Origin: Escherichia coli
GTDB taxonomy: Bacteria; Pseudomonadota; Gammaproteobacteria; Enterobacterales; Enterobacteriaceae
Direction: 5' to 3' (one strand)
Assembly (NCBI RefSeq): GCF_044324785.1
Contig: NZ_CP172127.1
DNA: 64,000 bases
Shown here: positions 45,001 to 51,000 of the stretch, one piece after another
Position numbering within the stretch: position 1 is the stretch's first letter
How the letters are laid out: every line of letters begins with the position of its first letter
Made by a program: the position numbers

Positions 45001-48000
45001 TTTGTTACTTATGACAGTGCGGTTCGATTCCTGATCGTGAACCAGCAGGCCGAGCGGCAGCAGTGAGACTATCTCTTCATTGATTGCCCGTAAAATGCGC
45101 AATTCGTTATTGACCGCCGTGTTGGGTAGACTTTCTGTACTGCGACTGGAGAAATGGCGAAATGTGGTATAGCCAAATAACGCCAGCGCCAGCAAACCGA
45201 TGTTCAGCAGCAGTGGCAGCAGAATGTTTTGCAACGTATCCAGCAATAAGGTGCCATAAGGAACCTGCCAGACCAGTCGCATATCGGTAGAGTTGAGTGC
45301 CGAGGAGATTTCAATCTTCGTACTGTTAAAGTGGATACTGACGCTATCCGTCCCTTCTTTCTCATTATCATTGTTTCCCGTTGCCGTCGCGTCTGGCTCA
45401 AGGCGGAAACTGTCCAGCGGCATACCCGGTGGGATCAAATCATTAATCGGCAGATCAAAAGCCACAACCGTTGCCAGATGTCCCGGCTGGTTGAACGTGG
45501 TACGCAAGGTAAAGTAATGACCGTTCTGCCAGGCCAGGCGGCGCATGTTAGAAAAGCTTTCGCGTTCATCGAGGGCGTTGGCCTGTTGCAACATCTCTGC
45601 ACGACGTGAATCAACAATGTCGCTGACGGTCGATTCTTTAAATCCGGAGGTGAGATCTTTAAGGGGCAGGGTTGAGATCAGCACCAGACTGTTATCCTGA
45701 CCATTAAGGTAATACATCGACCACGGTACATTTTCTGCGCCCCACAATGTGTCCAGATAGGTGGACATCCGTTGAGTCATCTCAAGCGTTGAGTTGTCGT
45801 GAGAGCCAAAGATTAACGCTTCCGTTTTGCGGCGTGGTTTCTCCAGATAGTAGACATCCTGTTTCAGGCGCGTCTCTTGTAAACCTTCGCCGGAGGAGGG
45901 GGAGGTCGTCGCGGCAATGTTGTCGTAGATCTGCCAGGTCACGTAACGCCAGGTATCGACGCGCTTTTGGATAGCGTGGGTAATGTCGACAATCTGGTAA
46001 CTTTTATCTTTCAGCCAGGCGTTAACGGCGCTTTGTACCATTACACCCATCGTCACCAGTAACACAATGATCAACAGTAAAAAGAAGCGGGTAATGCTCC
46101 CCGGTAGGAGTGAAAAGCGGGTCGTGGCCGTTGTCTCTTTCTGACGCATTCGTGTTTATGACCTGTTAAAACTTCGCGAAGTGATAGGGCAGTATAAAGG
46201 GTACAGTGTGAAATTCCAGACTCTTACCTGATTGATGATTCTCTATTCTCCCGTGATATTTATCATCCTGCATTGGGGAAAATAGATGTACAAGCGCCAT
46301 TTTGCTGTACAAATAACCTACAAAAAGCCCAACGAAATTAATTGCAAATAAACGAAGATTGCTGGAAATTATGCTGATGTTAATTATTTGTGAAATAGTT
46401 AACAAGCGTTATAGTTTTTCTATGGTAGCACAGAATAATGAAAAGTGTGTAAAGAAGGGTAAAAAAAAACCGGATGCGAGGCATCCGGTTGAAATAGGGG
46501 TAAACAGACATTCAGAAATGAATGACGGTAATAAATAAAGTTAATGATGATAGCGGGAGTTATTCTAGTTGCGAGTGAAGGTTTTGTTTTGACATTCAGT
46601 GCTGTCAAATACTTAAGAATAAGTTATTGATTTTAACCTTGAATTATTATTGCTTGATGTTAGGTGCTTATTTCGCCATTCCGCAATAATCTTAAAAAGT
46701 TCCCTTCTATTTACATTTTGAAACATCTATAGCGATAAATGAAACATCTTAAAAGTTTTAGTATCATATTCGTGTTGGATTATTCTGCATTTTTGGGGAG
46801 AATGGACTTGCCGACTGATTAATGAGGGTTAATCAGTATGCAGTGGCATAAAAAAGCAAATAAAGGCATATAACAGAGGGTTAATAACATGAAAGTTAAA
46901 GTACTGTCCCTCCTGGTCCCAGCTCTGCTGGTAGCAGGCGCAGCAAACGCTGCTGAAGTTTACAACAAAGACGGCAACAAATTAGATCTGTACGGTAAAG
47001 TAGACGGCCTGCACTATTTCTCTGACGACAAGTCTGTAGATGGCGACCAGACCTACATGCGTCTTGGCTTCAAAGGTGAAACTCAGGTTACTGACCAGCT
47101 GACCGGTTACGGCCAGTGGGAATATCAGATCCAGGGCAACGCTCCGGAAAGCGAAAACAACTCCTGGACCCGTGTGGCATTTGCTGGTCTGAAATTCCAG
47201 GACATCGGTTCTATCGACTATGGTCGTAACTACGGCGTAGTTTACGACGTAACTTCCTGGACCGACGTACTGCCAGAATTCGGTGGCGACACTTACGGTT
47301 CTGACAACTTTATGCAGCAGCGTGGTAACGGCTTCGCGACCTACCGTAACACTGACTTCTTCGGTCTGGTTGATGGCCTGAACTTTGCTGTTCAGTACCA
47401 GGGCCAGAATGGTAGCGTAAGCGGTGAAAATGATCCGGATTTCACTGGTCATGGCATCACCAACAATGGTCGTAAAGCTCTGCGTCAGAACGGCGACGGC
47501 GTTGGCGGATCTATCACTTATGATTACGAAGGCTTTGGTATCGGTGGTGCGATCTCCAGCTCCAAACGTACCTGGGATCAGAACAACACTGGTCTGATCG
47601 GTACTGGCGACCGTGCTGAAACCTACACTGGTGGTCTGAAATACGACGCTAACAACATCTACCTGGCTGCTCAGTACACCCAGACCTACAACGCAACTCG
47701 CGTAGGTTCCCTGGGTTGGGCGAACAAAGCACAGAACTTCGAAGCTGTAGCTCAGTACCAGTTCGACTTCGGTCTGCGTCCGTCTGTAGCCTACCTGCAG
47801 TCTAAAGGTAAAAACCTGGGTGTCATCAAAGGTCGTAACTACGACGACGAAGATATCCTGAAATATGTTGATGTTGGTGCGACCTACTACTTCAACAAAA
47901 ACATGTCCACCTACGTTGACTACAAAATCAACCTGCTGGACGACAACCGCTTCACCCGTGACGCTGGCATCAACACTGATGACATCGTAGCTCTGGGTCT

Positions 48001-51000
48001 GGTTTACCAGTTCTAATCTCGATTGATATCGAACAAAGGGCCTGCGGGCCCTTTTTTCATTGTTTTCAGCGTACAAACTCAGTTTTTTGGTGTACTCTTG
48101 CGACCGTTCGCATGAGGATAATCACGTATGGAAATAAGCTTTACCCGCGTGGCACTGCTGGCTGCCGCGCTCTTCTTTGTTGGTTGCGATCAAAAACCAC
48201 AACCCGCCAAAACCCACGCTATTGAAGTTACCGTTCTTGAAGGCAAAACCATGGGTACGTTCTGGCGTGCCAGCATTCCGGGCATTGACGCCAAACGCAG
48301 TGCCGAACTTAAAGAAAAGATTCAGACCCAGCTGGACGCTGACGATCAGCTGCTTTCGACCTATAAAAAAGATTCCGCGCTGATGCGCTTTAACGATTCG
48401 CAAAGTTTATCGCCGTGGCCGGTAAGTGAAGCGATGGCCGATATCGTCACCACCTCGCTGCGCATTGGCGCAAGGACCGATGGTGCGATGGATATAACCG
48501 TCGGGCCGCTGGTGAATCTGTGGGGCTTTGGTCCGGAACAACAGCCGGTTCAAATTCCGAGCCAGGAACAAATTGATGCGATGAAAGCCAAAACCGGCTT
48601 ACAGCACCTGACGGTCATTAATCAGTCGCATCAGCAATATCTGCAAAAAGACCTGCCGGATTTATATGTCGATCTCTCCACCGTCGGCGAAGGCTATGCG
48701 GCGGATCATCTGGCACGCTTGATGGAGCAGGAAGGGATTTCCCGCTATCTGGTGTCGGTGGGCGGCGCGCTGAACAGCCGTGGTATGAACGGTGAAGGCC
48801 TGCCGTGGCGGGTAGCGATTCAAAAACCAACCGATAAAGAAAACGCGGTTCAGGCTGTGGTGGATATCAACGGTCATGGGATTAGCACCTCTGGCAGCTA
48901 CCGTAACTATTACGAACTGGACGGCAAACGTCTTTCCCATGTTATCGATCCGCAAACCGGGCGTCCCATCGAACACAATCTGGTATCCGTGACGGTGATT
49001 GCCCCGACGGCGCTGGAAGCCGATGCCTGGGATACTGGCTTGATGGTACTGGGGCCGGAGAAAGCCAAAGAGGTTGTTCGCCGGGAAGGGCTGGCGGTCT
49101 ACATGATCACCAAAGAAGGTGATAGCTTTAAAACCTGGATGTCGCCGCAGTTTAAAAGCTTCCTTATCAGCGAAAAAAATTAAAGCGCAAGATTGTTGGT
49201 TTTTGCGTGATGGTGACCGGGCAGACTAAAGGCTATCCTTAACCAGGGAGCTGATTATGAAAAACGCCACATGCTTAACTGACGATCAACGCTGGCAATC
49301 TGTCTTAGCCCGCGACCCGAATGCCGACGGCGAATTCGTTTTCGCCGTGCGCACCACGGGCATCTTTTGCCGTCCGTCTTGCCGAGCCAGACATGCCTTG
49401 AGGGAAAATGTCTCCTTCTACGCAAATGCCAGCGAGGCACTGGCCGCCGGATTTCGCCCCTGCAAACGTTGTCAGCCAGACAAAGCCAATCCCCGGCAAC
49501 ATCGCCTTGATAAAATTACCCACGCCTGCCGACTTCTGGAACAGGAAACGCCTGTAACGCTGGAAACCTTAGCCGACCAGGTGGCGATGAGTCCATTTCA
49601 TTTGCATCGGTTGTTTAAAGCGACTACCGGAATGACGCCGAAAGCCTGGCAACAGACCTGGCGCGCTCGTCGTTTGCGCGAGTCGTTAGCGAAAGGGGAG
49701 AGCGTGACGACGTCTATTCTTAACGCCGGATTCCCCGACAGCAGCAGTTACTACCGCAAAGCTGACGAAACGCTGGGCATGACGGCTAAACAATTCCGTC
49801 ACGGTGGCGAAAATCTGGCGGTGCGTTACGCGCTGGCTGATTGTGAGCTGGGTCGTTGCCTGGTGGCAGAAAGCGAGCGGGGGATTTGCGCGATATTGCT
49901 GGGCGATGATGACGCGACACTAATCAGCGAGTTGCAGCAGATGTTTCCCGCTGCCGACAACGCGCCTGCCGATCTGACGTTTCAGCAACATGTGCGTGAA
50001 GTGATCGCCAGCCTCAATCAACGCGATACGCCGCTGACGTTACCGCTGGACATTCGCGGCACTGCTTTTCAGCAACAAGTCTGGCAGGCACTGCGCACTA
50101 TACCTTGTGGTGAAACCGTCAGTTATCAGCAACTGGCGAACGCCATCGGCAAACCGAAAGCGGTACGGGCCGTTGCCAGCGCCTGTGCCGCCAACAAGCT
50201 CGCTATCGTAATACCCTGTCATCGGGTAGTCCGTGGTGATGGCACACTTTCCGGTTACCGCTGGGGCGTGTCGCGTAAAGCGCAACTGCTGCGTCGCGAA
50301 GCTGAAAATGAGGAGAGGTAATGTTGGATCTGTTTGCCGATGCTGAACCGTGGCAAGAGCCACTGGCGGCTGGTGCGGTGATTTTGCACCGTTTTGCTTT
50401 CAACGCTGCGGAGCAACTGATCCGCGATATTAATGACGTTGCCAGCCAGTCGCCGTTTCGCCAGATGGTCACCCCCGGGGGATATACCATGTCTGTGGCG
50501 ATGACTAACTGTGGGAATCTGGGCTGGACGACCAATCGGCAAGGTTATCTCTATTCGCCCATTGATCCGCAAACAAATAAACCGTGGCCCGCCATGCCAC
50601 AAAGCTTTCATGATTTATGTCAACGTGCGGCTACGGCGGCGGGCTATCCAGATTTCCAGCCAGATGCTTGTCTTATCAACCGCTACGCTCCTGGCGCGAA
50701 ACTGTCGCTGCATCAGGATAAAGACGAACCGGATCTGCGCGCGCCGATTGTTTCTGTTTCTCTGGGCTTACCCGCGATTTTTCAATTTGGCGGCCTGAAA
50801 CGAAATGATCCGTTAAAACGATTGTTGTTGGAACATGGCGACGTTGTGGTGTGGGGCGGTGAGTCGCGGCTGTTTTATCATGGGATTCAACCGTTGAAAG
50901 CGGGGGTTCATCCACTCACCGCCGACTGCCGCTACAACCTGACATTCCGTCAGGCAGGTAAAAAAGAATAAAAATAAGAATTATTATTGCTGTGTGCGCG

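Follow-up and report, generated by a model that had tools for sequence, protein, structure and literature searches.

The window analysed here, a stretch of 64,000 nucleotides from the Escherichia coli contig NZ_CP172127.1 (assembly GCF_044324785.1), carries an ompC gene that raises the question of where the residues by which its product exceeds the OmpC of K-12 are located, and whether they alter the porin as a receptor or as a channel. An earlier note on this DNA had placed an ompC of 375 codons at 46889-48016 and had given the K-12 length as about 367 aa. The gene was found as a single open reading frame on the plus strand with exactly these coordinates, and is embedded in the following locus:

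43477-46149, minus strand: rcsD
46150-46888, no strand assigned: rcsD-ompC intergenic region, 98.6% identical to K-12
46462-46555, minus strand: micF antisense small RNA gene (Rfam RF00033), divergent from ompC
46889-48016, plus strand: ompC coding sequence, one open reading frame with an ATG start and 375 codons followed by a TAA stop
46889-46951, plus strand: signal peptide of 21 aa, the same as in K-12; the mature protein begins with AEVYNK
48035-48054, plus strand: hairpin with a T run behind it, resembling a terminator, 19 nt past the ompC stop
48128-49183, plus strand: apbE (ftp)

The gene is a member of the enterobacterial osmoporin OmpC, within the general bacterial porin family PF00267. 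The OmpC profile NF007841 (NCBIfam) gave 756.6 bits (cut-off 484), whereas the profiles of OmpF (479.1 bits, cut-off 583) and PhoE (451.9 bits, cut-off 599) remained below theirs, and the Pfam domain Porin_1 (PF00267) covered residues 27-375 with E = 1.4e-140. Besides its signal peptide, the protein possesses the C-terminus LVYQF, an aromatic-residue ending typical of outer-membrane beta-barrels (...VYQF), and the PDB chains 2XE1 and 2J1N begin at residue 22 of its precursor. E. coli strain N3 has an annotated ompC whose DNA is 100% identical to that of the gene, and the order rcsD-micF-ompC-apbE is common to the window, K-12 and strain N3. The micF gene covered model positions 1-94 of 94 (116.8 bits, gathering score 79) and has a terminator-like hairpin of its own at 46490-46468. 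The rcsD-ompC intergenic region contains the regulatory region upstream of ompC, with the presumed OmpR-binding boxes. OmpC porins are characterized by an osmolarity-dependent expression under EnvZ/OmpR and by assembly into trimers in the outer membrane. The 200 nt before the ATG differ from K-12 only by two adjacent substitutions (46707-46708), and the spacer between ompC and apbE is 100% identical to K-12.

The K-12 reference was ompC of MG1655 (b2215; NC_000913.3, positions 2311646-2312749, 1104 nt; NP_416719.1; PDB 2J1N), whose 367 aa bear out the length given in the earlier note. In pairwise alignment the two proteins were 93% identical and differed by 25 substitutions and in 8 gap columns, so that neither the sequence nor the length of the window allele is that of K-12; all eight gap columns represent residues that are present in the window allele and absent in K-12. 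Because the first 46 residues, including the signal peptide, are the same in both proteins, the extra length is internal and does not result from a wrongly assigned start codon. The loop borders come from Beck et al. (2016; S1 Fig), whose alignment is structure-based, together with the gap-free match to 2XE1. Mapped in this way, the extra residues lie in extracellular loops, as the earlier note had supposed: L4 holds four of them (DPD and H; mature positions 161-163 and 167), and the other four, GVIK, occupy mature positions 290-293 in L7. The loops concerned, and L5 between them, are:

47405-47485, plus strand: extracellular loop L4, mature residues 152-178, allele b1 (K-12 alignment; Beck et al., S1 Fig and S2 Table)
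47432-47440 and 47450-47452, plus strand: extra residues of L4, DPD and H, respectively; where exactly these gaps fall varies with the alignment
47567-47611, plus strand: extracellular loop L5, mature residues 206-220, allele a11, as in CFT073
47813-47851, plus strand: extracellular loop L7, mature residues 288-300, allele g, with GVIK at nt 47819-47830

The sequences of L4 and L5 match the b1 and a11 entries in S2 Table of Beck et al. (2016) exactly, and that of L7 is their allele g, for which isolate TA124 is the representative. L5 has kept its K-12 length, with 7 of its 15 residues changed. Altogether, the surface loops L1, L2, L4, L5, L7, and L8 hold 21 of the 25 substitutions in only 80 of the 367 aligned codons, and L3 and L6 contain no replacements relative to K-12. 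According to the contact table of Beck et al. for 2XE1, the inserted His167 of L4 stacks on Trp208 of L5, and the L7 insert is in packing contact with L5, L6, and L8.

Comparison at the DNA level showed that the divergence from K-12 is local to ompC, since the gene is 91.2% identical, against 96.5-100% for the remaining segments in the comparison. Within ompC the differences form discrete, loop-sized patches between stretches of 98-100% identity, and the flanks directly outside the gene are 98.6-100% identical. In pairwise comparison with K-12, dN was 0.198 in the loops and 0.007 elsewhere, and dS was 0.43 in the loops and 0.12 elsewhere, reaching 1.18 in L4. These dS values point to cassettes imported long ago rather than to recent point mutation. 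The pairwise dN/dS ratio was 0.46 for the loops overall, that is below 1, and 1.05 for L5; these ratios are no demonstration of positive selection, and the difference between loops and barrel indicates relaxed or diversifying change only.

A modular organization is also apparent beyond this pair of alleles. The 14 OmpC alleles compared range from 363 to 376 aa and carry their indels in L2, L4, L5, and L7, except for an indel of a single residue at the junction of beta9 and beta10, and the loop types were found in differing combinations. For E. coli OmpC more than 220 variants have been described, in which L4, L5, and L7 are modular (PMC5056734). The best explanation, to which we assign a probability of about 93%, is that the window carries a functional natural allele of a general-diffusion porin with modular surface-loop polymorphism and an unchanged pore. 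Its pattern corresponds to a well-documented polymorphism of E. coli ompC, in which intragenic recombination reassorts old, diverged loop cassettes; diversifying selection exerted by agents that dock on the loops (phages, CdiA toxin-delivery proteins, antibodies) is the proposed driver. The product has a K-12-like barrel and pore and is altered only in its outward surface, by longer L4 and L7 loops and by substituted L1, L2, L5, and L8 loops.

The allele is already known and represents an ordinary natural OmpC variant, not a new one. The exact protein is RefSeq WP_024216337.1, which is present on 531 public contigs; two independent complete genomes have it in their annotation. In 5,426 complete genomes, counted by BLAST identity bands and not by allele extraction from each genome, the L4 core of the window allele was found in 194 genomes, and 3,466 genomes (~64%) matched a 60-nt query across the L7 insertion at a coverage of 80% or more, nine genomes showing at least 99% identity to this query. 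The four-codon L7 insertion of the window form is thus the majority state, and the short L7 of K-12 is the minority, unusual form. The total length of the protein is less informative: a second allele of 375 aa gets its length from other loops, and OmpC of O157:H7 has the K-12 length with other loops. Since alleles of equal length carry different loops, the length of ompC is a weak, homoplasic character for typing. The earlier note had rated the length difference as a minor strain-typing observation; this level of interest was apt, with the lesson that strains should not be typed by ompC length alone and that K-12 is atypical for L7.

Changes in the exposed loops may concern the function of OmpC as a receptor. 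In O157, the L7 insertion GVIN, which has to adopt the correct main-chain conformation, is necessary for adsorption of phage PP01, and its addition to a K-12 OmpC devoid of the loop-4 GFTS motif was sufficient (PMC12892980). The substitution N306A in O157 OmpC was tolerated, whereas N306P or deletion of N306 abolished adsorption of PP01; at this Asn of the L7 tip, only Ala and Pro were tried as substitutions, in addition to deletions (PMC12892980). The insertion in the window allele has the position and the length of the PP01 determinant but reads GVIK, with Lys, versus GVIN, with Asn, in O157. By analogy, we infer that it would provide the loop length required by PP01-type gp38 adhesins. For the toxin-delivery protein CdiA-EC536, recognition is decided by the L4/L5 pair (PMC5056734). 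Recognition-competent pairs are, for example, b1+a1, c1+a1, and c1+a11, and both CFT073 and isolate A35H, which carry b1+a11, are resistant and were not rescued by a swap of L7 or L8 (Beck et al., 2016). By loop comparison, the b1+a11 pair of the window allele would not be a receptor-competent combination. Because CFT073 and A35H share this pair and are resistant, cells with the window allele should not be recognized by CdiA-EC536, a prediction that, like that for PP01, is extrapolated from alleles 1-8 positions away from the window allele.

A more tentative reading, which we consider possible but rather unlikely, is that the b1/a11/g loop set might form a receptor surface with a phage and CDI susceptibility unlike that of any studied allele. 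It is based on the replacement of the Ala293-Ala337 contact of 2XE1 by Lys293 and Asp337 and of Gln333 by Arg333. If it were true, the porin might, for example, be refractory to T4 and CdiA-EC536 and yet serve PP01-like gp38 adhesins or undescribed phages as a receptor. Whether a strain can be targeted by a given phage, contact-dependent inhibition toxin, or antibody depends in part on its OmpC loop allele, and knowledge of the allele type L4-b1/L5-a11/L7-g is useful when phage host range or CDI susceptibility is to be predicted; beyond strain description its importance is small.

The earlier note had suggested that the extra residues could change phage receptor or antibiotic permeation properties. 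The first part is upheld to the extent that published work ties these loop sites to recognition by PP01 and CdiA-EC536; the second has no support, L3 and the pore charges being unchanged. The central element of the pore is:

47231-47308, plus strand: constriction loop L3, mature residues 94-119, with the same amino acids as in K-12

Over its 26 codons L3 shows four synonymous differences from K-12 and no replacement. All seven charged pore-lining residues (K16, D18, R37, R74, D105, E109, and R124) are kept, as is the serine equivalent to S271, and the resistance substitutions D18E, S271F, and R124H do not occur in the window protein. Since 346 of the 354 mature residues are the same as in the crystal structure 2XE1, without gaps, homology to this solved structure predicts a beta-barrel of 16 strands that is constricted by L3 and has a transverse charge field. 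With a barrel, an L3 eyelet, and charged constriction residues that agree with those of K-12, the protein should conduct solutes as any other OmpC does.

The loop changes could nevertheless be read as an adaptation of antibiotic permeation, in which longer loops narrow or recharge the mouth of the pore and reduce drug entry. In the clinical OmpC20 series of Lou et al. (2011), the channel was indeed narrowed by more than 1 Å through differences caused by L3 and L4 in the extracellular cavity that lies above the constriction, and in the window allele the net charges of L4 and L7 are each one unit off K-12. The same authors reported a constriction radius of 2.9 Å that was alike in all their OmpC structures, and a pore profile that differed between the clinical variants and K-12 or O6 but not between K-12 and O6; OmpC of O6 (2XE1), the near-identical relative of the window protein, was thus placed with K-12. 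Together with the conserved L3, the retained transverse-field residues, the S271-equivalent serine and the absence of the three resistance substitutions, and with the variety of hosts and environments that yielded the allele, which is not specific to resistant clinical lineages, this makes such an adaptation very unlikely.

It is likewise highly improbable that the allele was imported whole and recently from another Escherichia species or another enterobacterial genus, instead of being put together from E. coli cassettes. The 90%-identity protein cluster does include OmpC of E. albertii and E. marmotae, and the dS of L4 is very high. Divergence from K-12, however, is patchy by loop instead of uniform along the gene, the flanks just outside ompC are nearly those of K-12, and each of the loop types is found again, differently combined, among other E. 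coli alleles. Finally, the possibility that the extra length is an artefact of a wrong start, of an assembly or sequencing error, or of confusion with a paralogue (OmpN, NmpC, PhoE, or OmpF) has a negligible probability: nothing was found in its favour except that paralogous porins give secondary BLAST matches (median of two matching places per E. coli genome), and the in-frame, internal position of the extra residues behind a K-12-like signal peptide and N-terminus, the synteny with K-12 ompC between micF/rcsD and apbE, the profile scores above the OmpC and below the OmpF and PhoE cut-offs, and the identical DNA in strain N3 speak against it, and an artefact of one assembly is contradicted by the presence of the protein in two independent genomes and on 531 contigs. 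Start-codon artefact, paralogue confusion, and assembly error were ruled out on these grounds.

The window OmpC can be compared with four known porins. It shares with K-12 OmpC the gene, the locus, the signal peptide, the barrel, L3, L6, and the constriction residues; K-12 OmpC differs by being 8 residues shorter (four each in L4 and L7) and by 25 substitutions. OmpC of O157:H7 (WP_000865552.1), whose loop pattern is matched by that of PDB chain 9WCB, has four residues inserted in L7 at this same position (GVIN versus GVIK), but compared with the window allele its L4 is shorter by 8 residues, its L5 differs and reads DDQNSPLYIGN, and the whole protein has 367 aa. OmpC of the UPEC isolate A35H (Beck et al., 2016) resembles the window allele in L4 b1, L5 a11, a mature length of 354 aa, and one shared 12-residue strand. 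It differs in L7, which is VING (allele e) versus VIKG (allele g) in the window, in having A at the L8 position where the window allele has D and Q where it has R, and in lacking V85I and F88I. OmpC of CFT073/O6 (2XE1; WP_000865543.1) has the same precursor and mature lengths (375 and 354 aa), aligns without gaps, and shares L4 b1, L5 a11, the length of the L7 insertion, the barrel, and L3. The window allele differs from it by eight substitutions (F88I, V197I, A199G, V201I, V292I, A293K, Q333R, and A337D in mature numbering), four of which lie in L7 and L8 at loop-contact residues of 2XE1, where Ala293 contacts Ala337, Gln333 contacts Arg295, and Val292 contacts L5 and L6. The window allele belongs to the long-L4 b1 class together with the uropathogenic strains CFT073 and 536, and by its a11 L5 to the CFT073 sub-type.

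At 46889..48016 (+), exactly as the earlier note had claimed, a single ORF with an ATG start, a TAA stop and 375 codons encodes the outer-membrane porin OmpC, and the K-12 length of about 367 aa given there was correct (MG1655 ompC, b2215 of NC_000913.3: 1104 nt, 367 codons). The protein scored 756.6 bits against the NCBIfam porin OmpC model (cut-off 484) and fell under the cut-offs of both the OmpF and the PhoE models, and its match to Pfam Porin_1 spanned the entire mature length. An exact-sequence look-up found the identical protein, named "porin OmpC", on 531 public contigs. 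These results disfavour the explanation that the extra length is an artefact or belongs to a paralogue. The gene lies in its canonical context, and the order from rcsD to apbE is that of K-12 and of the similar E. coli strain N3, with which the window shares its ompC at 100% DNA identity.

Genes and other features around ompC
26112-28739, gyrA
38439-41288, rcsC
43477-46149 (-), rcsD
46462-46555 (-), micF (Rfam RF00033, 116.8 bits)
46889-48016 (+), ompC
48035-48054, terminator-like hairpin between ompC and apbE
48128-49183 (+), apbE

Antisense to ompC, a 364-aa ORF (46982-48076, -) lies mostly inside the gene and extends beyond its stop; only the mechanical ORF listing contains it, and no evidence marks it as a gene. 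The T-tail immediately 3' of micF (minus strand) contains an additional A at 46461 that K-12 and N3 both lack, and the micF terminator stem carries an A-to-G change relative to K-12 at 46473.

The window resembles strain N3 and is not identical to it. A single SNP (48259) separates the two over 46462-50000. The spacer between the convergent rcsC and rcsB genes is occupied in the window by an IS3-family element of 1,432 bp (41307-42738, +), absent from N3, with TG...CA ends, imperfect terminal inverted repeats (23/30), a flanking TTAC duplication and two ORFs (41349-41879 and 41984-42706) that both match the NCBIfam IS3 transposase model. Between gyrA and rcsC, where N3 has the ato operon (atoSCDAEB), the window lacks it and carries five same-strand ORFs of 564, 216, 1539, 549 and 258 aa (28881-38164). 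An alpha-2-macroglobulin family protein is annotated in the matched interval of the best-matching genomes, and the 1539-aa ORF gave no NCBIfam match. This interval looks like a variable-content region adjoining the finding. At about 15509-15514, an MFS transporter gene that is split by ISEc31 in N3 is uninterrupted in the window; from there to gyrA the identity to N3 is only 97.7%, compared with 99.4-99.6% on either side.

Alignment with K-12 OmpC revealed unequal lengths and 93% protein identity, with 25 substitutions and eight residues unique to the window allele. Because residues 1-46 match those of K-12, the 21-residue signal peptide among them, the extra length is internal and does not result from the choice of start codon. 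With loop borders as in S1 Fig of Beck et al. 2016 (PMC5056734), an alignment annotated with structure, the eight residues were confined to loops L4 and L7, which bore out the expectation that they lie in extracellular loops.

Extra residues relative to K-12
47432-47440 (+), DPD in L4
47450-47452 (+), H in L4
47819-47830 (+), GVIK in L7

Of the 367 aligned codons, the 80 that belong to L1, L2, L4, L5, L7 and L8 contain 21 of the 25 substitutions, and the remaining 287 contain only four replacements. Neither the constriction loop L3 nor L6 contains any. By the Nei-Gojobori method, dN against K-12 was 0.198 in the six variable loops and 0.007 in the rest of the gene, and dS was 0.43 and 0.12, respectively, reaching 1.18 in L4 alone. 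The raised synonymous divergence suggests that the loops are diverged cassettes of long standing and not the product of recent point mutation. The divergence is local to ompC (91.2% DNA identity to K-12), whereas identity is 96.5-100% for rcsD, both intergenic spacers, apbE and ada. Inside the gene it is concentrated in discrete patches, and the stretches between them are 98-100% identical. These patches, as well as the differing combinations of loop types described below, disfavour import of the whole gene from another species.

Length variation was surveyed in 39 full-length matches, sampled systematically at even spacing down the ranking. ompC ranged from 1092 to 1131 nt; the K-12 length of 1104 nt occurred in 18 matches and 1128 nt in 3. 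An alignment of 14 OmpC alleles (363-376 aa) placed indels only in L2, L4, L5 and L7, with one exception, an indel of a single residue where beta9 joins beta10; the alleles combined the loop types in different ways. OmpC of strain KE41 reaches 375 aa by combining a short L4 with an L5 eight residues longer and an L7 insertion, whereas that of O157:H7 strain 611 has the 367 aa of K-12 with an L4 four residues shorter and an L7 insertion. Because equal lengths are reached through different loops, OmpC length is homoplasic. In a set of 5,426 complete E. coli genomes, a 66-nt query of the L4-b core matched only 194, whereas 3,466 matched at least 80% of a 60-nt query laid across the L7 insertion; a K-12-type L7 should not seed the latter search, because its flanks lack a 28-nt exact word. 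The short L7 of K-12 is thus the minority state, and "longer than K-12" partly reflects the reference strain.

The window allele is already known. Its loops correspond to L4 type b1 (representative UPEC 536), L5 type a11 (CFT073) and L7 type g (TA124) in S2 Table of Beck et al. (PMC5056734), where the L4 of CFT073 is also labelled b1 (S4 Table). The exact protein, RefSeq WP_024216337.1, is annotated in N3 and in strain WP4-S18-ESBL-07 (ompC DNA 99.7% identical), and among the 5,426 genomes ompC matched at 99% DNA identity or more in 9 records and at 95-99% in 263 more. The best match in the PDB was 2XE1 (354 residues, E = 5.4e-235, gap-free), the OmpC of uropathogenic E. coli O6/CFT073; K-12 OmpC (2J1N) has 346 residues. 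The window gene is an ordinary, catalogued ompC allele with a near-identical homologue of solved structure.

Eight mature positions differ from 2XE1: F88I, V197I, A199G, V201I, V292I, A293K, Q333R and A337D. The barrel-strand substitution F88I (codon ATC in GSIDYG, 47150-47152 region) is common to the window, WP4-S18-ESBL-07 and LHM10-1, is missing from the 11 other aligned alleles and 2XE1, and is a lineage marker of this subgroup. In the 2XE1 contact table (Beck et al., PMC5056734), inserted residues contribute to loop packing: L4 His167 stacks on L5 Trp208, Asp209 is bonded by Thr165 and Ser155, and the L7 insert Val291, Val292 and Ala293 contacts L5, L6 and L8. Four of the eight differences concern L7/L8 residues present in this table, which lists Ala293-Ala337, Gln333-Arg295 and Val292 with L5 and L6. 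Lys293 and Asp337 could form a salt bridge in the window allele.

What these loops mean for function we infer from published work. The earlier note had proposed possible effects on phage reception or antibiotic permeation, and its interpretation was essentially right. The permeation part is not well grounded, because the eyelet is unchanged, the constriction radius is 2.9 A in all OmpC structures of Lou et al. (PMC3203869), and the pore profile of OmpC-O6 was grouped with that of K-12 in the same work. The resistance-linked changes D18E, S271F and R124H (Lou et al. 2011, PMC3203869) are all missing from the window OmpC as well, and a reading of the loop changes as a permeation adaptation is disfavoured.

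The phage-receptor part is well grounded. Beck et al. (PMC5056734) distinguished more than 220 OmpC proteins in E. coli, which vary mostly in the modular L4, L5 and L7. In their experiments L4 and L5 decided whether OmpC is recognised by CdiA-EC536, a contact-dependent inhibition protein; CFT073 and A35H were resistant, and swaps of L7 or L8 were without effect. The L4/L5 pair of CFT073 and A35H is that of the window. Washizaki et al. 2016 (PMC5221442) cite unpublished or preliminary data according to which O157 OmpC is unusable for T4 and a phenylalanine in loop 4 matters for adsorption of this phage; the sequence near this residue differs in the window allele. Removal of the four L7 residues GVIN from O157 OmpC abolished adsorption of phage PP01, and their insertion into loop 7 of a K-12 OmpC without the loop-4 GFTS restored full plating efficiency; alanine substitutions in the insertion were tolerated, suggesting recognition of main-chain conformation (PMC12892980). 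At this site, where O157 OmpC reads GVIN, the window allele reads GVIK.
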